From contig JADJYW010000029.1 in assembly GCA_016719605.1 (NCBI GenBank), forward strand, positions 260,612 to 324,611: a stretch of 64,000 nt of DNA, read 5' to 3'. The DNA comes from Lewinellaceae bacterium (GTDB lineage Bacteria; Bacteroidota; Bacteroidia; Chitinophagales; Saprospiraceae). Shown here piece after piece: positions 13,187 through 58,100 of this stretch (positions are counted from its first letter, which is position 1; the number at the start of each line of letters is the position of its first letter). The notes beneath the pieces are model-generated. The model was not told the DNA's origin, made no database searches, and saw only the letters and a list, made by a program, of their open reading frames with translations. Both the position numbers and the translations under genes were made by a program.

Positions 13187-13281
13187 ACTCCTCGTTTTGC
13201 TTTTGCAAATGTATCATTTTCCGACAAAAATAAAACCCCCTGAGTCCTGCCATTGACCAATTCACATAAGCACTTCCTAAA

Positions 13282-16200
13282 ATGAAAGAATTCAAACCAA
13301 CTTCCTGGTCTATTGATAACCGGACGAGCATTTTTATCATCACGGTGCTCATCACGCTCGCCGGCATCATGTCATACAATTCCCTGCCCAAAGAGCAGTT
13401 CCCTGATGTGGTTGTGCCCACCATTTTCGTCTCTACGGTCTATCCCGGCGCATCGCCGACCGACATGGAGCAACTCGTCACCAAGCCCATCGAGAAACAA
13501 CTCAAGGGCATTGCCGGGGTGAAAAAAGTGACCTCCTCGTCGGTGCAGGATTTTTCCAGCATCATCGTCGAGTTCAATACCAACCTGAACGTGGTGTTGT
13601 GTAAAGACAAGGTAAAGGACGCTGTGGATAAAGCCAAACGCGATCTGCCCAACGACCTGCTTGACGACCCGCAAATCACGGAATTCGATATCTCCGAAGT
13701 TCCGATTATGAACGTCAATATCTCGGGCGATTTCAGTTTGGACAAACTTAAGGACTACGCCGAAAAACTCAAGGGATCGCATTGAGGAAATGCGGGAAAT
13801 CACCCGCGTAGATTTGGTGGGCGCCCTGGACAAGGAAGTGCAAATCAACGTGGACAAGTATAAAATGTCTGCTGCGCAACTGACTTTCCGCGACATCGAG
13901 AACGCGGTCGCTTTCGAGAACATGACCATTTCTGCCGGCAACGTGGACATTGGCGGCATGACCCGCTCGATCTCCATTCGTGGCGATTTCAAGGATGTAG
14001 AGCAAATCAAAAACATCATTGTAGCCTCCCAGTCCGGCGCTCAAATGTTTCTCAAAGATGTAGCCGAGGTGAAAATGGGCTACGAAGAACAGGAAAGTTT
14101 CAGCCGCCTGAACGGCAAAAACGTCATCGCACTCAACGTCATCAAGCGCTCCGGCGAAAACCTCATCAACGCTTCCGACAAGATCAAGGAACTCGTGGAC
14201 GAGATGAAAACCTCCGAGTTCCCGCCGAATCTCGATGTGGTCATCACCGGCGACCAAAGTAACGCCACGCGCGTCACGCTGCACGACCTCATCAACACCA
14301 TCATCATCGGTTTTATCCTCGTCACCATCATCCTCATGTTTTTCATGGGAGGCACCAATGCTATTTTCGTAGCCATGTCGGTGCCCCTGTCCATGTGCAT
14401 TGCGTTCATGCTGTTGCCGGCATTCGGTTTCACCCTGAACATGATCGTGCTTTTTGCTTTTTTGCTCGGACTGGGTATTGTGGTGGATGATGCCATTGTG
14501 GTGATAGAAAACACGCACCGGGTGTACAATGACGAAAAATTAGACATCGTCACGGCTGCCAAAAAGGCCACATCGGAGGTTTTCCTGCCCGTGCTCTCCG
14601 GTACCGCCACTACCCTGGCGCCGTTTTTTCCGCTTGTATTTTGGGGGGGTATTTTCGGCAAGTTCATGCACTTCTTGCCGGTTACGATTATCATCACGCT
14701 CACGGCCTCGCTGTTGGTAGCCTACATCATCAATCCGGTGTTTGCCGTGTGGTTTATGCGCCGTGATGGCGACGATTCGATAAAAACCGACCCGAAAAAA
14801 GCCCGCCGCCGCACCATAGCCGGCTATGTGCTCTACGGGTTGGCACTTGTTTATTTTTATGCCAATAGTAACTGGTTTGCAGGTAACCTTCTGGTTGTTT
14901 TGGCGCTGCTCATCGTGCTGTACCGGTTTGTATTGCAGGGCTTGGTGGAGCGTTTTCAAACCAAAGCCTGGCCCGCTGTTCAGAACATTTATGCGCGTTT
15001 CCTCGATTTCGCCCTTGGGCGTCCATGGACAATGCTGGTGGGTATGTTTGTTTTGCTCATCGGTTCCTGCGGTATCACCGCTTCGCGGGAAGCCAACATC
15101 GTGCTCTTTCCCAAGGCCGACCCAAACTTTATCTACGTCTATCTGAATATGCCTGTCGGCACCGATGTAAACGTCACCGATTCGCTCACCAAAGTCATGG
15201 AGCGCAAAGTGGTGGAAGTGCTCGGGGCGAACAATCCCATCGTGGAATCCGTCATTTCCAATGTGGCACTGAATGCTTCGGAGGATCAATTCGACCGTTC
15301 GGCTACTTCCAACAAGGGCAAGGTCGGTGTGGCGTTTGTTGAGTACGGCAAACGCAACGGCGTGAGCACCAAGGCATACATGGACGAAATTCGGGAGGCC
15401 ACCCACGGTATTATTCCAGGCGCCGAAATCACGGTGGATCAGGAATCGGGGGGGCCGCCGACACCGAAACCAATTTCTGTGGAAATCCGCGGCGACGACT
15501 TCGCCCAGCTCAGCAAGGTATCTATGGCGGTGAAACGCTACTTAGATTCCCTGGCGATCCCCGGTGTGGAAGAATTGCGCAGCGACCTCATTGTGTCCAA
15601 GCCCGAAATCAACATACAGATTGACCGCGAGCGCGCCAACCGCGAAGGCATCAGCACGGCCCAGATCGGCACCGAGTTCCGCACGGCTATCCTCGGCAAA
15701 GAAGCCAGCAAATTCCGCGACGGCGAGGATGAACTGCCCATCAACATCCGCCTGCAAAAGACCAGCGCGAGAATATCAATTCCGTGGAAAACCTCAACAT
15801 TACGTTCCGCGATATGAACATGGGCGGTGTGTTGCGCTCTGTCCCCATGTCCGCTCTGGCAGATGTGGCCTACCGGAATACGTTTGCCGGCATCCGCCGC
15901 ATGGATCAGCAGCGAATGGTGACGCTTTCGTCCAACATTACCGCCGAGTACCAACCCAAACAAACTCAGGTGGTGAATGCCGTGAAAGCTGCCCTGCTTG
16001 CCTTGCCCAGTACGATGGGGTCACGGTCAGTTTTGCCGGCGAAGACGCCGAAATGATGGATGCCATGAGTTTTCTGGGCAACTCGCTCATTATCTCGCTG
16101 TTCATTATCCTGCTCATTCTCGTCACGCAGTTCAACTCGTTTGGCAAAGCCCTCATCATCATGACCGAGGTAGCCTTTTCCATCATTGGTGTGCTGCTCG

Positions 16201-16634
16201 GCATGGCCATTTTTAATATGGATTTTTCCGTGATCATGATGGGCGTGGGTATCGTTGCTCTCGCTGGTATTGTGGTGCGAAACGGTATTCTGATGGTCGA
16301 GTTTACCGACCATTTGCGCGCCGGAGGAACACCCGTGCGCGAGGCCATCATCGAAGCGGGTCGTATCCGGATGACCCCGGTGCTGCTCACCGCCACGGCT
16401 ACTATCCTCGGCCTTGTTCCGCTGGCGGTAGGTTTCAATATTGACTTCGAGAGCCTGCTGACGCATGGTGATCCCAAGATATTCTTCGGCGGTGACTCCG
16501 TTTCGTTCTGGGGGCCGTTGTCCTGGACAATTGTGTTCGGCCTGAGTTTCGCCACGTTTATCACACTGGTCATCCTGCCGGTCATGTACCTCAAGGGTTG
16601 GCAGATGAAGCAGTGGTGGGACAAGAAGATGTAA
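13282..16634 (+). pseudogene. RND efflux permease (AcrB/CzcA family), reading frame broken three times as assembled
   Basis: Four collinear ORF pieces (13282-13785, 13790-15817, 15784-16056, and the C-terminal part of 15564-16634) join into one RND permease. The first junction reads ...DYAEKLK|DRIEEMREITRVDLVGA.... Single-base indels lie in the G-run 13773-13775 (+1), at 15756-15760 (-1) and in the C-run 16006-16008 (-1). Confidence 0.85.
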
Positions 16635-16649
16635 GGATACGTTTGCCGA

Positions 16650-16759
16650 GGAAAGGAAGGGGGCAAAAGGGTAATGTGAGATTTTTGTTCAAATTCACTG
16701 CAGAAGCGGAGACACCGAGAGCATTGCTCCGCGTCTCCTTACCCTTTTGCCCCCCTTCC
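16650..16759. repeat. inverted-repeat element between convergent genes (probable bidirectional terminator / REP-like)
   Basis: Arm ggaagggggcaaaagggtaa (about 16655-16674) pairs with ttacccttttgccccccttcc (16739-16759). An inner hairpin contains ctccgcgtctcc, and a related gacgcggag core recurs at 33503-33606. Confidence 0.6.
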
Positions 16760-16761
16760 GC

Positions 16762-17508
16762 CTACTCCTCAAAAAACCGGATGGCACGCTCCTGCAGCGG
16801 CCGCAGCGGACGGGAGTTTTCGTGCATGACCGTCTCGAAATGATGGATTTGTTCCGAGGACGCTTCCACTGGTTGTGCCAGTACATACCAAATGACGTTT
16901 TGGGTACAGGGCGGCGTGGTGAGTGAGCCCGGATAGGTGTAATAACTCCGGTTGGTCGGCAGCACGTCTGCGGGATTGTATTGTTCAGATGACTCGTAGT
17001 GTGGACTGCTGCTCGTAGGCAGATGATCCATGAATGCACTCAGGAACGCATTTTCTGCCCCTTCTTCAAACAATACCCCCACAACCACCCGATTTCCCGT
17101 AGCAACATGCTGATGCACCAAATGTAATTCCAGGGGGGCATGGACGCCCTCTATGGCGTGCTCGCTGTGCGTGTGGAAATGGAACTGGAGCAACTTGTAC
17201 GACGCTCCGTTCAGGTTGAGTGTGCTGTTGCCTTTTTCCGTATCAAACTCGATCGTGTGCCCGTTGAACACGATATCGGTTTCAAGGTCGGTGTATTGGA
17301 GGGCAAGGGCCTTCAGCGACGCGTCGAACAACGCGCCCGTAAGATTCACAGGAGACTGGAAAATACCATTGCAATCAGCATAGTCGTCGCAGAGCGACAT
17401 CCAGTGGTCAGGGCCGGTCACGCCTTCGTACTCCCATTTTTCGCACACGTCGTCCACCGGTTCGTCGTCTTTGCAGGAAAATACAAACAGGAGGAGGAAG
17501 GCCAGCAT
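16762..17508 (-). CDS. alpha-class carbonic anhydrase (lipoprotein-like signal)
   Basis: Motifs SPVNL, LLQFHFHTHSEHAIEG, LELHLVH and YYTYPGSLTTPPCTQNVIWYVL are classic alpha-CA. ATG 17508 (MLAFLLLFVFSC) is preferred within track ORF 16762..17601. Confidence 0.8.
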   Translation of the reverse strand: MLAFLLLFVFSCKDDEPVDDVCEKWEYEGVTGPDHWMSLCDDYADCNGIFQSPVNLTGALFDASLKALALQYTDLETDIVFNGHTIEFDTEKGNSTLNLNGASYKLLQFHFHTHSEHAIEGVHAPLELHLVHQHVATGNRVVVGVLFEEGAENAFLSAFMDHLPTSSSPHYESSEQYNPADVLPTNRSYYTYPGSLTTPPCTQNVIWYVLAQPVEASSEQIHHFETVMHENSRPLRPLQERAIRFFEE

Positions 17509-17666
17509 GGCCAGGCGCCAGATGGCGGCGGGTTGGGTATTTTGAATGTTGTCATAGAGATGATAAGTTGATAGGTGAGAACAGAGCAAAAGTGCGCTCA
17601 CCCCAAGTGACCATTTCCGTCAACTTTGTAGCATTTTCCATCAAAGTGCGTGAGCAAGGAACACCA

Positions 17667-20662
17667 TCACTTCCCCACTACCTCCGACGGCAGCTTCCCG
17701 AACCGCTGCCGGAAAGCTCGCGAAAAGGAACGGGCATCGTCGTAGCCTACCCGGGAGGCTACTTGCGCGACGGAATCGAAGACGCGGTTTTCCAGCAGGC
17801 GACGGGCTTCGATCAGGCGCACTTCCAACAGGTATTGTATCGGCGGCAAGCCCGTGAGGCGCTTCAACTGCCGCAGCAGCGTGGACTCGCTCATAGCGAA
17901 TACGCGGGCCAAATCGGCAATGCTCAGAATATCGCTGGAAAGATGCTGCCGGACGTACTCCTCAAAAGTTTCGAGCCATTGCTGGTCGGGCTGCGGCAAG
18001 GATGGGTTGGCGGCCGATGGCTCGACGGCAATAGCAGCTGCGGCTTGTCTGTTCGCGGCGTTGCGCAGCAGGTTTTCGATGCGGGCAAGCAGTTCCTCCT
18101 CGTCGAAAGGCTTGAGCAGGTAGTCGTCCACGCCGATGCGCAGCGCTTTCAGTTTGTCCTGCGCTTCCGCCCGCGCGGTGAGCATGACGACCGGAATATG
18201 CCGGGTAGCCTCGTTGGATTTGAGTTGTTCGAGCAGCCGGTAGCCATCCATAACCGGCATCATGAGGTCGGAGAGGATCAACCCCACCCCCGGCCCCGAC
18301 CCTAATGGGAGGGGAGCCGTAGAGGATACCGTGGTGTTTGCCGCGTCTCCCTTTCTGGTTTGGGAGGGCCAGGGAGGAGCCGAGCGCGGAGGGTACTGCA
18401 CCGGATCAACTTCCGGTTTTCCCGGTTTCCCCCTAAAACGTCCAAAGCCGCCTGCCCGTGGTCGGCGGTGACGACGTGGTATTTTTCCTGCAAAATGGTC
18501 CGGATAGAATCCTGGAGGTCGAGATTATCCTCCACGACAAGAATGGTAGGTTTGGCTCCGGTGGAGATTTCCGACGGGACAGGTGTGGTGTGGCCGGCGC
18601 CGGCGGTTGGAAGAACGTAATGATTCGCGTGATCGGGTTCCGCAAGCGCTTCGGTTTCCGACCGGGCAACCGGGAATGCCACCCGGAGAACAGAACCTTT
18701 GCCAAGTATACTTTCCACCTCGATGGTTCCGCCAAACAGTTGCGCGTAGTCGTGGCAAAGCGCCAGCCCGATGCCGGTGCCGCCCTCGGCGGGCTTATCG
18801 GGGCGAGTGGTCTGAAAGTAGCGATCGAACAAGTGCGGCAGGTCGTCGGGGTGGATGCCCGGGCCGGTATCGGCTACGCGCAGGTGCAGCATACCGGCTT
18901 CGACCGATACGGCTGTCTCGATACGGCCACCGTTCGGGGTGAATTTGAAGGCATTGGCGAGCAGGTTGAACAGGATTTGGCGGAATTTTTCCTGATCGAG
19001 CAACACTGCAGGTGTGTTTTGCGGCGGCAATTCAACGGAGAAGTCAATTTGCTTGCGTTCGGCCAACGACTCAAATTGGGCGCAATAGGTGCGGACGAAA
19101 GCCGACAACCCGGTAGGTTTAGGGTGCAACACCAGATGCCCTTGCTCCAGTTTGCGCAGGTCGAGGATGTCGTTGACGAGTTGTTCCAGTTGCTTACCAC
19201 TTTGCCCGGCCATTTGCAGCAGGCGCACTTGTTTGTCGGTCAGTTGGCCATCTTTCAGCAGGGTATGGATGGGGCCGAGCAGCAGGGTGAGCGGGGTGCG
19301 CAGTTCGTGGGAGACGTTGGCAAAGAAGCGGGATTTGGCGGTGTCGAGGGATTTCAGTTGTTCGGCTTGTTGCTGGATGAGGGTGTTTTGGACGGCTAAT
19401 GCCCGTTTGTCCTGCCGTTGTTTTTGATACCCGAAGAAAAGGCCTATAGCCAAAAGCAAGATCAATATAAAGATGACCAGCGTGTAGCGGAGTTGGGTGT
19501 TTTTCAGGCTCAATTTCAGGTTCTGCTCTCTCTTATCGGCTTCCAGTTGATCTTTTTCCTGTTGGAGGTAATAGTTTTTTAAATTAAAACCGGCACTTCT
19601 TTCTTCGAATGCTTCTTTATGGAAATACTGTTTTTTAGTGTACGCCAGCGCCTCTTCAAAGCGCCCTTCCTGCTCAGCGATGTAGGCCTTCCATTCAAAT
19701 GTACCGACTAATAAGTCGTCTATTTTTTGTTGTATCGCCCTGTTATGTGCCCGTTCCAGATAGGATTTTGCCAGTTTCCTGTTGCCCCTATCCCACTCCA
19801 ATTCGGTCAAGGCGTCCAGAATGTGGACTTCGATCCACGGTTGGGTGCCGTCTTCAGTTAATTTCAAGGCTTTTTGATAATTGATCTCCGCCTCAACAAT
19901 GTCTTTTTTAATCATGGCCAGCTTGGCTCGCCCTCGTGCAGCCGTTATCAATTTACCTAAAACAGCAGGCCGGATTGGATGGGCCACCGGCATTTTTCGA
20001 TCACAGCGATGTGTTTGTAAGCCTCTTCGTAGCGCCCGGCATCTATTTTCAAACGCAGCATTCGGGCATTCAGGTGGTAAATAGCCAAGGAATCACCCTT
20101 CCCTTCCGCTTCTGCCAGAAGCACGTCCATATCGGCCAGCACATCGCCCAATTTCCGGTCTTTTACACTTAGCTCCAGTTTGCTCATCCGCGCCTCCACT
20201 TGGGGGAAATAATGGCCTGATTGGTCAAACAGGGCGAGCGCCTTGTCAATATACACGGTGGCCAACCGGTTCATCCCCAGGGCACTGTAGTATCGGCTCA
20301 GATTCATATTCGATCCGCCCTCTTCTTTCAGGTCTTTTTGCATTCGGGCCACCTGCACCATTTCCTTGCATACGTCAATCGCTGCTGGAAGATTGAACTG
20401 CTGCTCCAAGCGGATCATGATGTTGTAGTAGTTCCGGCGAAGGCAGTCGAGGTCCTGACCGCAGTGGCCGCGAACCAATGTAAGTATAAATTGAACGGCT
20501 ATCGGGCGGTTGGCGTTCCAATTGGGCTTCGATACGAGACCAAAGCGTATCCCCGGCATCACCAGAGCGGGAATTCTGGGCGCCAAGGCCGCCCGCACCT
20601 GGAAGCGTGCATAAAATGGTTGTAGCAAACGCCACAATGCCCTGATAAATAATTCTTGTCAC
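17667..20662 (-). pseudogene. hybrid TPR sensor histidine kinase / receiver / AraC-type HTH regulator, frame broken as assembled
   Basis: Collinear pieces 19957-20637 (TPR-like) and 18302-19993 (TPR, TM, HisKA SHELRTPL, HATPase, start of the receiver TILVVEDN...ALDVL). Piece 17667-18401 completes the receiver (LILSDLMMPVMDGYRLL...DYLLKPF) and carries the AraC HTH. There is a one-base deletion in the T-run 19993-19997 and a 152-nt insertion at 18290-18441. The N-terminal boundary is uncertain. Confidence 0.7.
18290..18441. repeat. G/C-rich repeat-like insertion inside the receiver domain of the hybrid kinase
   Basis: 152 nt lie between the codons for ALDVL and LILSDLMMP, where receiver domains normally have only a few residues. 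The block contains cacccccggcccc (compare caccccccggccccc in the ileS inverted repeat). Confidence 0.5.
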
Positions 20663-34412: not shown

Positions 34413-37400
34413 TTAGTTGACCTCCACATGGATTCCTACCAGCACCTCGTCTTCCAGTTCCACTTTTTCGCCGCCGTCCAGGGTGTCGGCCAAAACCAGA
34501 TCCGTAGCCAGCACCTCGGACTTGATGTAGTCGTGGAATTTTTCGACCGCATCCAACAAGGCAGGGTGACGCTCCAGCGTGACGATGACGCGGTCGGTCA
34601 CGTTGAAATTTTTGTCCTTGCGGATGTTCTGGATGCGGTTGACGAGGTCGCGCGCGGTGCCTTCGGCGAGCAGTTCGGGTGTCAACGTCACGTCCAGCGC
34701 CACCGTCAGTTCGCCAGCCGTAGCCGTTTTCCAGCCGGGCAAATCTTCTGTGCTCACGATCATGTCGTCCGGCGTGAGCGTGTAGGTATTGCCGTTGAGG
34801 ACGACTTCCAGTACGCCGGATTTTTCCAATGCACTGATTTCTTCGTTGGAGAAATTGGCGATCAGTGTTGCCGCATCTTTCATGTCCTTGCCGAGTTTGC
34901 CGCCGAGCGTTTTGAAATTTGCCTTGGCGCCTTTTTTCAGCAGGCCCGACGCATCGGTGATGTACTCGATTTGCTTCACGTTGATTTCCGACAGGATCAG
35001 GTCTTTCACGCCGTCCACTTCGGCGATGAACGCCTCGTCGAGCACCGGCAGCAGGATTTTTTGCAGGGGCAGGCGTACGCGCAGTTTTTCCTTTTTGCGG
35101 ATACTCAGCGCCAGCGAGCAAATGCGCTGGGCGTAGTCCATGCGTTTTTCCAGCGCCGCATCCACCTTGGCGGAATCGGGGAGGGTCAGGTCGGTGAGGT
35201 GTACGGAGTCGTGGCGCAGCGGGGTGTTGTGGGCTTTGGCCGCGTCTTTTATCGGTGCAGTCAGGTTGCGGTACAGCCAATCGGCGAAGTGCGGCGCGAC
35301 GGAAGCCATGAGTTGACCGGTCACCAGGAGACACTCGAATAAGGTCTGGTACGCGGCTAATTTGTCTTCCCCCATTTCGCCTTTCCAGAAACGCCGGCGC
35401 GAGAGGCGGACGAACCAGTTGGACAGGTGTTCGTCCACAAAATCCTCGATGGCGCGGCAGGCGCGGGTCACGTCGTAGTCGTCCATGGCCGCGTGGTAAT
35501 CGGCCACGAGCGAGTACAGTTTGGAGATGACCCAGCGGTCGAGCTCGGTGCGCTGGTGATAGGGCAGCACGTTTTGCTCATCCATTTTGAAGCCGTCGAG
35601 GTTGGCGTACAGGGCAAAGAAGTTGTAGGTGTTGTACAGGGTGCCGAACAGTTTGTTGCGCACCTCGGTGATGCCTTCTTCGTTGAATTTCAGGTTGTCC
35701 CACGGGTTGGCGTTGGCCATCATGTACCAGCGGGTAGCATCGGCGCCGTACTCTTCGATGGTCACGAAAGGGTCCACGACATTGCCCTTGGACTTGGACA
35801 TTTTGTTGCCTTCTTTGTCCAGTACGAGGCCGTTGGAGACCACGTTTTTGAAGGCCACCGAGTCGAATACCATCGTAGCGATGGCGTGCAGAGTGTAAAA
35901 CCAGCCGCGGGTTTGGTCCACGCCTTCGGCGATGAAGTCGGCCGGAAAGTTGTTTTTGAAAATTTCCTGATTTTCAAACGGGTAGTGCCACTGCGCGTAC
36001 GGCATGGAGCCGGAGTCAAACCAGACGTCAATCAAATCCAGTTCGCGGCGCATGGGTTTGCCGGAGGGAGAGACGAGGATGATATCGTCAATGTAGGGGC
36101 GGTGGAGATCAGCCTCACCCCCCGGCCCCCTCTCCAAAGGAGAGGGGGAGACGAAGAGTGAATCAGCCCTACTCTCCCCCTCTCCTTTGGAGAGGGGGCC
36201 GGGGGGTGAGGCAAGGACGCGGCGCAAATCGGTCAAAACATCATTTAACGCGTTCATTACTTGCTGATTCGCAAACCGAATTACCCGGAATCCGGCGCTA
36301 TTCAGATATGCTGTCCTCGCTTCATCAAATTCTTTTTGTTCGTCTCTATTGTGGTACTCGCCGTCCACTTCAACAACTAATTTTGCAGAAATGCATGCAA
36401 AGTCAGCGATAAAAGAACCAATCTGGTGTTGTCTGCGGAACTTGAAGCCATCCAGTTTTCGATTGCGAAGTGCTTGCCAAAGCACCTCTTCGGCTTCGGT
36501 CGGCGATTTTCGATTATCTCTGCCGTGTGTTTTTAAAATATGCCAGATTGTTTTATCGCCGGTAAATACGAATTGGGAAAGTGCATCTGCATGATCATCA
36601 TCCGATGAAACCCGAGTTTTGTACGGATTCTCCTGCATCAACCCTGCCGCCACTGCCTTCTCCACCTCTGCCCGCAACTGCTCCACCGACCCGATGCACA
36701 ACTCCTCTTCCGCATCCTCGGTGCGCCAGATGGGCAGCGGTACGCCCCAATACCGCGAGCGACTGAGGTTCCAGTCTTGCAGGTTTTCGAGCCATTGGCC
36801 GAAACGCCCGGTACCGGTGCTGGCGGGTTTCCAGTTGATGGTCTTGTTCAGTTCTGCCATGCGCTCTTTGGCCGCCGAGGCGCGTACAAACCAGGAATCG
36901 AGCGGGTAGTACAGCACAGGCTTGTCGGTGCGCCAGCAGTGGGGATAGGTGTGTTTGTATTTTTCGATTTTGAACGCCTTGTTATCCTCCTTCAGGCGCA
37001 GCGCGATGAGCAGGTCGGTGGGTTTGAAATCCTTGTCTTTTTGCACCTCGGCGGGGTAGTACTCGGACTTGACGAAGCGGCCGCCGAATTCCGGCACCTC
37101 GTCCACAAACTTGCCCTGCCGGTCCACGAGCGGAAAGGGTAGATCGGGCGCTTTTGGATTGGACAAGCCGATGAACGGCACGCCCGCAGCCTTGCTGGCC
37201 CGGAAGTCGTCGGCGCCAAAGTAGGGCGCCGTGTGCACCACGCCGGTACCATCCTCGGTGGTTACCCAGTCGCCGGGAATGACGCGGAAGGCATTGGCTT
37301 CCAGTTCGGGTGTGCTCGCGGCGGGTGTGGGCAGGAGTTGTTCGTACCGGATACCGACGAGGGCGCTGCCTGTGCGGTACGGCAGTTTTTTGTCGCCGAC

Positions 37401-55405: not shown

Positions 55406-58100
55406 ATGAGAAACCTGTTGTCGTCGCCGATACTGATCGCGGCACTACTCCTGACCTATGCCTGCAACCCCAAAGTCGCAGATAAAACAAGCGCAACACC
55501 CTCCAAACCAACTCCTGAAGCCACCTGGGATACCCTTGGAAAACCCCTGATGGGCAACGAGGCAGCCGACTCCGAATATGCGGATGAAGAAGAACCCGAA
55601 GACTATTTCGTTCTGGATGAGGCCGTCGTCAGCCCCGGCAATGACGCCCTCGAACGCCCCGACACCCTCCCCCGATACAATACCTCCCACACGTTCGAGC
55701 ATGATCTGATCCACACCAAACTGGAACTCTCCTTCGACTGGGATAAAAAACACGCCAACGGCAAGGCCACGCTTACCCTCCGACCGTGGTTTTACCCCAC
55801 CGAAAAACTGACGCTGGATGCCAAAAACTTTGATATCCACTCCGTGAATTTTGAGGGTAAAAAAGACACGCTGCGGTACGACTACAACAACGAACAACTC
55901 GTCATTCAACTCGGCAAAACCTACACCCGTACCGAGGAGTACAAAGTCGTCATCGCCTATACCGCCAAACCCGATGAGCGCGAATCCTTCGGGGGCAGCG
56001 CGGCTATTACCAGCGACAAGGGCCTGTACTTCATCAATGCCGATGGTGCCGACCCCGAAAAGCCCCGGCAAATCTGGACCCAGGGCGAGACCGAAAGTAA
56101 CTCGTTCTGGTTTCCCACCGTGGACAAACCCAACGAACGCTGCACCCAGGAAATGTACCTGACCGTAGCCGACAAGTACAAAACCCTTTCCAACGGCCTG
56201 CTCATTTCCTCCAAAAAGAATGCCGACGGCACGCGTACCGACTACTGGAAAATGGACAAACCCCACGCGCCGTACCTGTTTATGATGGCCATAGGCGAGT
56301 ACGCCGTAGTGAAAGACAAATGGCGCAACATCCCGCTGGAATACTATGTGGAGCCGAAGTACGAGCAATATGCCCGCGACATTTTCCCGTACACCCCCGA
56401 AATGCTCGAGTTTTTCTCCAAAAAACTCGGCTACGATTACCCGTGGCAGAAATACTCCCAGGTTGTTGTGCGCGATTACGTCAGCGGCGCCATGGAAAAT
56501 ACCACAGCGGTGATCTTCGGCGAATTCATGCAACACGACCAAACGCGGCCTGCTCGACAACCACCTGACCAACGAAAAAGTAGTGGCGCACGAGATGTTC
56601 CACCACTGGTTCGGCGACCTCGTGACCACCGAAAGCTGGGCCAACCTGACCCTCAACGAGGGTTTTGCCAACTACTCCGAATACCTCTGGCTGGAGCACA
56701 AGTACGGCCGCGACGAAGCCGACTACCATGAGCTGGTCGAACGCCAGGGCTACATCTATTCCGCACTCGATGGCGGCCACCCGCTCATCCATTTTGGCTA
56801 CGAAAGCCGCGAAAGCATGTTCGACGCCCACTCCTACAACAAGGGCGGCGCTATCCTGCACATGTTGCGCGCTTATTTGGGCGACGACGCTTTCTTCGCC
56901 TCGCTGAACTACTACCTGAAAAAACACGCCAATACCGATGTGGAGGCCCACGAATTGCGCATGGCCTTCGAAGACGTTACGGGTCAAGACCTCAACTGGT
57001 TCTTCAACCAGTGGTTCTTTTCCTCCGGCCACCCCAATCTGGATATTTCCTGCGACTGGGATGCCGATGCCAAAAAAGCCGTGGTCACCATCGCCCAAAC
57101 ACAGGAACCAAACAAAGAAACGCCTTACATCTACGAGCTGCCCCTGCAAGTAGACCTCTACGATGCCTCGGGCAAGGCTCGCCGGGAATCCATCCGCATG
57201 GTCAACCGCACCCAAACCTTCACCTTCGACGCGCCTGTCAAACCGGCTTTCATCAACGTGGATGCCCAAAAAGCCCTTTTAGCCGTCAAAAACGACCAGC
57301 ACCCGCCGGAAGAGTGGGCGTTTTTGTACCGCAACGCCCCCCTCTGGCAAGACCGCTGGGAGGCCGTGCAAAACCTGAAAGAGAACCCCGACCAGTTGGC
57401 CCGACAGGTCCTGACCGAGGCACTGCGCGACAAACACTGGTCTATTCGCCAGGAGGCGCTTTCGGTGGTTGACCCGGAAGATGCCGACGCGATGGTACTG
57501 GTGGCCCAAATCGCAGAAACGGATACCAAACCGGACGTGCGTGCAACGGCCATTGCCGTACTGAGCCAACTCGAAGATCCCCGATACTCGCCCGTTTTCG
57601 AAAAAGGACTGGGCGACGACCAGCCGTACAGCGTTTTGATAGCCTCCCTCGTTGCGCTCAGCCGGGCCAATCCCGAGGCTGCTTTGGCTGCTGCCAAAAA
57701 GTTGGAAAACAATGAAAACCAGGGTGTCGTTCTGGCCGTAGCCGAGTTGTACGCCGGCAGCCCGGAGGCTGGCGCGTTTCCGTGGTTTGTCAAACAAGCC
57801 GGCAAAATGGACAACATGGCGGCCTTCAGGTACTATGAACTGTTTGCCGGGTATCTCCTGGACCTGAACGATCCGGCTATCGTGGACGAGGCCGTCAAAG
57901 GTTTTCAGGCGGTGGCGCTGAACAGCAAAAACAGCCTCTGGAGGCGTTTTTCCAATACCCGGGCTATCGCTGAATTGCGCAATTTTTATCGCGAAGCGGC
58001 CGACAAATCCAGGGCGGATGCCCTGAACCTGATCCTGACCGACATCCGGGAAAAGGAAACTGACCAGACCCTGAAAACGTACTACGCGATGTTTGAATAA
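55406..58100 (+). pseudogene. M1-family aminopeptidase N-like lipoprotein, one frameshift as assembled
   Basis: Lipoprotein signal MRNLLSSPILIAALLLTYAC, then GAMENTTAVIFGEFMQHD, then KRGLLDNHLTNEKVVAHEMFHHWFGDLVT...NEGFANYSEYLW (HExxH-18-E) in the next frame. There is an extra C at 56539-56540. C-terminal HEAT-like repeats. Confidence 0.8.

Follow-up and report, generated by a model that had tools for sequence, protein, structure and literature searches.

A decayed palindromic repeat, probably read in frame, in the receiver domain of a Saprospiraceae hybrid kinase

The kinase gene and its divided receiver domain

The stretch of DNA analysed here (the window; 64,000 nt) is part of contig C29 of a Lewinellaceae metagenome-assembled genome (MAG; 29 contigs, 5.6 Mb, 93% complete). 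It carries on its minus strand a hybrid two-component gene (17667..20637), delimited by open reading frames (ORFs), Pfam domains and orthologues, whose receiver domain is interrupted by a 152-nt G/C-rich block, most of which derives from a palindromic repeat. The nearest named relatives of the gene come from Saprospiraceae and Lewinellaceae MAGs, and its Pfam domains follow the order TPR sensor, transmembrane segment, HisKA, HATPase_c, receiver (REC) and AraC-type helix-turn-helix (HTH). As assembled, the four hybrid-kinase domains stand in this order but in separate frames, and in orthologues they share a single ORF. Two breaks, near 19992 and inside the block, divide the gene into three frame pieces. 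Its true N-terminus (ORF 19957..20637) lies beyond the first of these, a one-base break at 19985-19995 where C29 has a run of five T and contig C13, a 27-kb variant of the window locus with 95-98% identity, has six; orthologues of 920-1016 aa (e.g. P0011 and P0015) align across 19992 without a gap. The middle piece (ORF 18302..19993) comprises TPR, the transmembrane segment, HisKA, HATPase_c and the first ~40 receiver positions (...KPTILVVEDNLDLQDSIRTILQEKYHVVTADHGQAALDVL), while the C-terminal piece (ORF 17667..18401), in a different frame, picks up the receiver profile again from position 43 (LILSDLMMPVMDG) and runs on into the AraC-type HTH.

The match to the Response_reg profile is split accordingly, with positions up to ~40 ending at ...GQAALDVL (18434) and positions 43-111 starting from LILSDLMMP (18281). 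The N-terminal half of the receiver, from beta1 to alpha2 (KPTILVVEDN...GQAALDVL), is encoded at 18434..18553 (minus strand; translation and PF00072), and the C-terminal half from beta3 onward, together with the AraC-type HTH, at 17667..18281 (minus strand; PF00072 positions 43-111, PF12833, PF00165). Exactly 152 nt (3n+2) separate DVL (18434) from LILSD (18281) in the assembly, and both Pfam and the ORFs bear out the original prediction, made from the sequence before any database search, that a block of this length splits the receiver between alpha2 and beta3 and leaves the two halves in different frames. The read-through product scores 88 bits against PF00072 in two stretches, including the DD, D, T and K positions of the profile. 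Linker length in orthologues had been proposed as a check on this prediction; since close orthologues have 9-14 residues in the alpha2-beta3 loop, the alignments show the block to be an insertion relative to them.

The block belongs to a dispersed inverted-repeat family

A profile built from the arms of the repeat family in this genome (nhmmer) gave 63 arm matches, mostly as inverted pairs 95-165 nt apart, which corresponds to ~20 paired elements in 5.6 Mb; in three congeners the arm pattern matches 32-116 times. The arms are ~43 nt long, lie in inverted orientation and have the consensus TCAACCCCACCCCCGaCCCCTCCCCCAAATGGGAGGGGAGC, and the elements measure 95-165 nt. One complete palindrome of the family lies inside ileS in the same window (36114..36210; E=5e-6), beside an in-frame DUF559 domain, and its arms at 36116-36130 and 36194-36208 contain the motif common to the kinase block. 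The same profile matches the block at 18279-18317 (E=0.027 genome-wide), so that the suspected kinship with the ileS repeat holds, and the membership of both in one inverted-repeat family is shown at the level of sequence similarity. In pairwise comparisons the arm of the block matches several copies at 85-89% over 41-48 nt, the best being C12:58268 (BLAST, 89% over 44 nt, E=4e-8). It is 87-88% identical to arms that flank DUF559 cassettes, including 87% over 46 nt to the arm beside the cassette in a congener's IleS. Similar copies thus exist elsewhere in the genome, as a search suggested by the original prediction was meant to establish.

Read in gene sense (arms, spacer and loop codons on the minus strand), the block begins with what are probably native loop codons, GGNRE(N/K).., that include an A4 run (18411..18433, the run corresponding to the plus-strand T-run at 18417-18420), judged by comparison with C13 and orthologue L146. 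These are followed by the upstream copy of an 8-nt direct repeat, GGATCAAC (18403..18410), a possible target-site duplication; if it is one, the block opens with 24-30 nt of native loop codons. A decayed 5' arm (18345..18392) with an outer CCGCGC, a C-tract and a hairpin ctccc..gggag is recognised by its likeness to other copies of the family, e.g. C14:37883 GGGGAGGGGAGACGCGACAAACACC. The central spacer (18321..18344), which like the second arm also resembles other family copies, is inverted with respect to the spacer of orthologues L146 and L147. The best-preserved part is the 3' arm (18278..18320), found by both BLAST and nhmmer, which reads CCCCTCCC-loop-GGGTCGGGG-CC-GGGGGTGGGG-TTGA, translates as APLPLGSGPGVG and abuts the beta3 codons. 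The downstream copy of GGATCAAC (18275..18282) shares bases with the end of the element and with the beta3 codons for L-I. The block had been proposed as a repeat-type element in its entirety; it is a family member, but the repeat-derived part is limited to ~110 nt (18278-18392) of the 152. The block does contain the small palindromes that had been noticed, ccctaatggg (18300-18309) and ctccc...gggag (18348-18367).

A search of 17500-19000 against Rfam gave no match at E<=1, and a structured-RNA reading of the block was dropped, its stability as RNA being not above that of shuffled sequences. The preserved arm also contains a G-quadruplex-type motif on the gene-sense strand (18282-18302; GGGTCGGGGCCGGGGGTGGGG), and tight motifs of this kind (four runs of at least 4 G, loops of 1-3) occur 99 times in the whole genome.

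Recurrent insertion into the same loop in orthologues

Among 107 full-length orthologues (58-75% identity; loop measured between GxxAL and LILSD), the alpha2-beta3 loop exceeds 14 residues in 64 (60%). Short loops of 9-14 residues account for 43 of the 107, an A/T-rich palindrome read as MMNDE...IIHHSS(L/F)PD for 37, G/C-rich inserts by a loose motif rule for 10, and other or decayed inserts for 17. Clear G/C-rich copies like that of the window were found in at least five orthologues (P0009, P0015, P0059, P0084, P0110). On a tree built without the loop, from which P0084 was left out as too short, loop states change at least 34 times. The gene of the window falls in a well-supported clade of ten, eight of which have an A/T-type insert, and P0009, with a G/C-type insert, groups as sister to P0003, whose insert is of the A/T type. 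Sister genes with unrelated palindromes or no insert argue for insertion rather than an inherited linker, and the sequence comparison shows that the alpha2-beta3 loop has been used recurrently for inserts in these orthologues.

The G-rich inserts of P0009, P0015 and P0059 are homologous, and each belongs to an open frame (860-1059 aa). Their junction is GGGGTGGGGTTGATCCTCTCCGAC in P0009 and P0015 and GGGGTGGGGTTAGTCC in P0059. In their DNA, L146 and L147 have the same 3' junction as the window copy, GGGGTGGGGTTGATCCTCTCCGAC, and L148 has TTAGTCC for TTGATCC; insert-free orthologues read CAA CTG ATC there. The spacer of the window is 76-79% identical to those of L146 and L147 as reverse complement and 59-63% in the same orientation, which implies either a flip between the arms or an independent insertion in the opposite orientation. 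With extended loops in 60% of more than 100 orthologues and two palindrome families involved, this site amounts to a natural experiment on how well insertions are tolerated and, possibly, on site-specific targeting. The A/T-rich palindrome family (ATGATGAATGATGAA...TTCATCATTCATCAT) has few copies in the genome of the window, one of them a full palindrome at C4:449500-449566.

Reading frame of the insert and alternative explanations

The variant contig C13 is 98% identical to C29 at the kinase locus, and in it the block is 156 nt long and in frame. It has one additional A in the A4 run (18417-18420), one additional base at 18383 and two at 18368. Read through, it encodes a 52-codon insert, GGNREKPEVDPVQYPPRVGSSPGSSQTRKGDAANTTVSSTAPLPLGSGPGVG, with DVLGGNREKPEVDPVQ and APLPLGSGPGVGLILSD as candidate read-through peptide segments; the kinase copy of the element is open in frame in this contig only. 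The idea that a single added base would open the insertion is thus partly upheld: C13 is in frame, but the A4 run is a likelier place for the missing base than the G5 runs first suggested, and C13 has three further bases inside the element. All five frame breaks of C29 that C13 covers have a frame-restoring length in C13; three are in an RND pump (13773, 15755, 16009), one is at 19992 and one is the block itself. With the three C13 lengths applied, the RND pump (13270-16634) becomes a single 1121-aa ORF, and its breaks have the look of consensus errors, not of decay. In orthologue L146 the stretch before the element measures 42 nt, as in C13, against 41 in C29, which makes the in-frame state look ancestral. 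L147 has the extra bases of C13 inside the element, and the 5' arm of C13 is nearer than that of C29 to the family consensus and to L147. Since five out of five coincidences would be unlikely were the indels of C13 random, we read the breaks in C29 as consensus errors. The assembly is, from these comparisons, shown to be error-prone at the kinase locus, and it is quite probable that the 3n+2 length of the block is a consensus indel error; the as-assembled 152 nt are not a reliable length.

Our preferred reading, to which we give a probability of about two thirds, is that a decayed, nuclease-less palindromic repeat sits in the receiver loop, that it is read through in frame, and that the frameshift is an assembly error. 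A G/C-rich palindromic repeat with arms of the BoxC/PIT type would have entered the alpha2-beta3 loop and would be translated as a disordered loop of 44-52 residues rich in Pro, Gly and Ser. All inserts in orthologues lie in open frames, so the in-frame state appears to be the selected one, and the copy in the window was either mis-assembled or very recently broken.

Several observations weigh against this reading. Two arms can be recognised in the block, yet it folds no better than shuffled sequence (z = +1.6), and the arm is degenerate, with GGGTCGGGG where the family has GGGGAGGGG; both features mark an old, decayed copy. Removing the 128 nt bounded by the direct repeat from C29 leaves an in-frame canonical loop, AALDVLGGNRENRKLILSD, of 11 residues. 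C13 itself has numerous indels (34 within 5 kb and 81 within 6.4 kb), often in homopolymers, and its in-frame block has a 1-in-3 chance of being accidental.

The loop restored by removing the 128 nt is the main support for the most serious rival, in which the frameshift is real: an element of 3n+2 length (120 nt plus an 8-nt target duplication) would have inserted and inactivated the kinase, leaving a young pseudogene, and the strain of C13 may have regained the frame through a +1 slip in the A-run beside the element. We consider this unlikely, although it has more in its favour than the other alternatives. The direct repeat GGATCAAC brackets 120 nt and is identical at 8 of 8 positions, the restored loop of 11 residues is as long as in the nearest orthologues that lack an insert, the spacing from repeat to repeat is 3n+2 in both C29 (128) and C13 (131), and the kinase gene has a second break at 19992. 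However, a comparable recurrence of an 8-mer is seen in ~5% of shuffles, no consistent target-site duplications were found around 20 other copies of the family, and with the A5 run of C13 the 128-nt deletion does not restore the frame. The length of the stretch before the element in L146 further speaks for an ancestral in-frame state, repairing lengths in C13 at all five breaks fit consensus errors better than five mutations in 11 kb, and none of the ~115 orthologues retrieved is broken at the site, apart from partial sequences. Because the MAG has indel errors at several nearby frame breaks, this assembly by itself does not justify annotating the kinase as a pseudogene.

It is very improbable that the block is a lineage-specific low-complexity receiver linker whose likeness to the repeat family is a coincidence of composition. 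The modest genome-wide E-value of the kinase copy, the lack of significant self-folding and a Pro/Gly/Ser composition typical of linkers would all agree with such an origin. They are outweighed by the pairwise matches to several copies (E down to 4e-8), the resemblance extending to the second arm and the spacer, the clear family copies at the same place in a paralogue on contig C8 (see below) and in three orthologues, and the sister genes with unrelated palindromes or no insert. Programmed -1 ribosomal frameshifting within the loop region, joining the two halves, has next to no chance and was rejected: an A-run (GGGAAAACC) does lie at the point of frame change with G-rich, potentially structured RNA after it, but the zero-frame codons CGG GAA AAC contain no X XXY YYZ slippery heptamer, the downstream sequence is no more structured than shuffles, and orthologues and the variant contig encode the region in one frame.

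Structural tolerance of the receiver loop

An AlphaFold2 model of orthologue P0015, computed from a 60-sequence alignment (mean predicted local distance difference test, pLDDT, of 78), has a confident beta1-alpha1-beta2-alpha2 segment (727-768, with alpha2 at 757-768) and a confident beta3 (811-817), while the insert at 769-807 has a pLDDT below 50 and no secondary structure. In the CheY-like topology of receivers, the alpha-to-beta loops lie opposite the phosphorylation site. An insert loop on the receiver face away from the phospho-acceptor site would leave the kinase probably functional. Bourret and colleagues (PMC8510515) place the alpha1-beta2 loop far from the active site and report that Ssk1 has disordered, Pro/Ser-rich insertions between alpha3 and beta4. 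In their account, receivers of fungal hybrid kinases have insertions of at least 10 residues in the loop alpha2-beta3 or alpha3-beta4, and insertions of this kind are less prevalent in bacteria than in fungi (PMC8510515). The fungal inserts resemble the kinase block in their size class and position; unlike the block, they have no known repeat origin. On the model and by this analogy, the insert is structurally tolerable in the receiver domain. The element probably has no signalling role, and its persistence might be explained by a loop that tolerates insertions together with a repeat that has hardly any stop codons in all but one of its six frames.

In-frame copies in other genes

Many copies of the family lie within long open frames, and the host genes are real as judged by Pfam domains on both sides of the element; the notion of a repeat-type element sitting in translatable form inside coding regions is thereby borne out well beyond the kinase and ileS. 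The closest parallel is a paralogous hybrid kinase on contig C8 (L063; C8:139521-139791) with an intact frame of 1442 codons, which has a family copy in the same alpha2-beta3 loop (AVL-NPTPGPPGGRVGQLLNNQLATRDVSPLPIGGGAGVD-LIISD) and a second arm in the linker just before beta1, so that its receiver domain was hit twice. In the NAD-dependent DNA ligase LigA (C15:294824-297202, 793-codon frame) an arm, SKPPSHLGEGQGVGL, occupies the gap that splits the match to the adenylation domain, and methylmalonyl-CoA mutase (C19:78476-80713) contains a complete in-frame palindrome of 135 nt in the stretch that links the mutase barrel with the B12-binding domain. Pfam-supported copies were further found in an nSTAND NTPase/FGE-sulfatase protein (element at aa 243-295), in an N6 DNA methylase (aa 202-214), in frame in the IleS of this window and, together with DUF559, in an SF1 helicase. 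Five of the six frames of the family arm contain no stop codon, which means that only the length modulo three matters for a copy to be read through. A fold-back origin of the elements, by which each copy would leave an inverted duplicate of its flanks, was rejected, extended palindromic flanks being present in two copies only (C1:138839 and C1:605998), which form a longer subfamily; C19:130129 shares their flank.

Association with DUF559 and possible origin

Only two DUF559 domains occur in the genome of the window, and both lie beside arms of the family, one in the ileS insert and one in the SF1 helicase, where the domain (C4:55622-55936) is bracketed by inverted arms. Across 41 genomes of the genus, DUF559 gave 25 matches, 13 of which have arms within 3-185 nt. 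The association is concentrated in copies inside large open frames (12 of 14 with arms within 3-185 nt), and nine of ~10 copies in small ORFs are without arms. Where Pfam was run, the hosts of the copies in large frames were IleS, SF1 helicase and the B12-dependent methionine synthase MetH. A typical cassette consists of an arm, 45-130 nt, DUF559, 60-130 nt and an inverted arm. Arm counts reach 32-116 only in the four genomes with at least two DUF559 copies and stay at 0-9 elsewhere in the genus, although these genomes are related and thus not independent. Of 16 other genera of the order sampled, 15 had no arms, and the remaining genome (G028) had 6 matches against 8 in a reversed-pattern control.

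An origin from such cassettes would explain the block as a nuclease-less derivative, which we regard as close to an even chance. The similarity between solo palindromes and the DUF559 cassette ends at the ~45-nt arms, derivation by internal deletion not being directly shown, and none of the ~115 orthologues has a full cassette in its receiver loop, the longest of these loops being 57 aa. Somewhat more tentatively, the block might be a remnant or non-autonomous copy of a selfish cassette, made up of BoxC/PIT-type arms and a DUF559 Vsr-like endonuclease, that would enter coding DNA and persist there as a translated loop, with the kinase loop as a recurrent landing site. With the same reserve, this scenario would have at least two unrelated palindrome families entering, flipping and replacing each other in the kinase loop many times. 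Both the neutrality of the insert and its descent from DUF559 cassettes are suppositions at this stage. A literature search for DUF559 with palindromic repeats returned nothing relevant, and neither the arm-cassette element nor a link of BoxC/PIT-type triplex motifs to DUF559 nucleases is described in the literature searched. If the scenario is true, the long-unexplained BoxC/PIT repeats would gain a partner enzyme, a large domain of unknown function would be given a testable role through its link to a BoxC/PIT-type motif, and mobile DNA would have a new way to live inside genes without splicing.

The helicase gene itself (AAA_11/AAA_12; C4:53364-57178) carries an arm-DUF559-arm cassette at 55481-56027 and a solo palindrome at 56797-56940. 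Its upstream (752-codon) and downstream (533-codon) frames overlap in different frames, perhaps another assembly indel. Cassettes were seen in the same helicase family in four congeners. At a locus of a congener (L161; G009:C55:35396-35722), DUF559 lies in frame in the activation domain of MetH with no recognisable arms.

Comparison with known repeat systems

The closest functional parallel seems to be the Rickettsia palindromic elements, dispersed palindromes that are carried in frame (Ogata et al. 2000, summarised in PMC10969869). Like these, the family described here consists of dispersed elements of ~100-150 nt that lie in frame in unrelated, often essential genes and would add a surface peptide without loss of the protein. 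The likeness is one of arrangement and a relation in sequence is not expected; the hosts differ as well, an obligate intracellular alphaproteobacterium on the one hand and free-living Saprospiraceae on the other, and the G/C-tract triplex-type arms and DUF559 nuclease cassettes set our family apart. By this analogy, we infer that the kinase block works like a Rickettsia palindromic element, as selfish DNA carried in the form of a translated loop. In-frame translated palindromes are textbook knowledge for Rickettsia alone, and the present family would extend their influence on proteins, some of them essential, to free-living Bacteroidota.

In their layout, the arms are reminiscent of BoxC/PIT, the G/C-rich intrastrand triplex motif (TM; Holder et al. 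2015, PMC4666352), with the E. coli consensus TMECO CCCTCNCCC N3-6 GGGNGAGGG N3 GGGNGAGGG (PMC4666352). Both have three blocks, namely a C-tract, a short loop, a complementary G-tract, a short loop and a second G-tract, as in the family arm CCCCTCCCC-ATTT-GGGGAGGGG-TC-GGGGGTGGGG, and in both the copies often form palindromic pairs. The exact TMECO consensus has no match in this genome, and a relaxed three-block pattern has 25. Judged by this sequence layout, the family arms have the BoxC/PIT triplex-motif architecture. The E. coli motif was reported to occur without exception in intergenic DNA and to have no link to mobile elements (PMC4666352), unlike our family, which is intragenic, in frame and brackets DUF559.

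MITEs, miniature transposable elements with inverted repeats, can also be intragenic, as known for ERIC, QMITE1 of Coxiella and the Anabaena MITEs (PMC10969869, PMC5896051), and they share with our family the small size, inverted-repeat ends, absence of own coding capacity and occasional in-frame fusion with host ORFs. Unlike for MITEs, no transposase-encoding parent was found here, the sole arm-bracketed gene being DUF559, a Vsr-like nuclease, and the target-site duplication of MITEs is paralleled by one marginal 8-nt repeat at the block and by none around the 20 other copies. Repetitive extragenic palindromes (REPs) and REPINs are likewise short hairpin families whose copy number tracks a dedicated enzyme gene flanked by repeats. 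Their enzyme is RAYT, a Y1 transposase, whereas that of our family would be a Vsr-like PD-(D/E)XK nuclease, and REPs are extragenic while copies of our family are often intragenic and predicted to be translated.

Further differences between the two contigs

C13 has ~15.9 kb of extra DNA relative to C29 (C13:4907-20791, at window ~16636-16762), located at the spacer that separates the RND pump from a carbonic anhydrase gene. C29 has a nested inverted repeat at this spacer, where the extra DNA of C13 joins. C13 also contains, at 18143-18968, internal repeats offset by ~230 and ~460 nt with ~85-88% identity.

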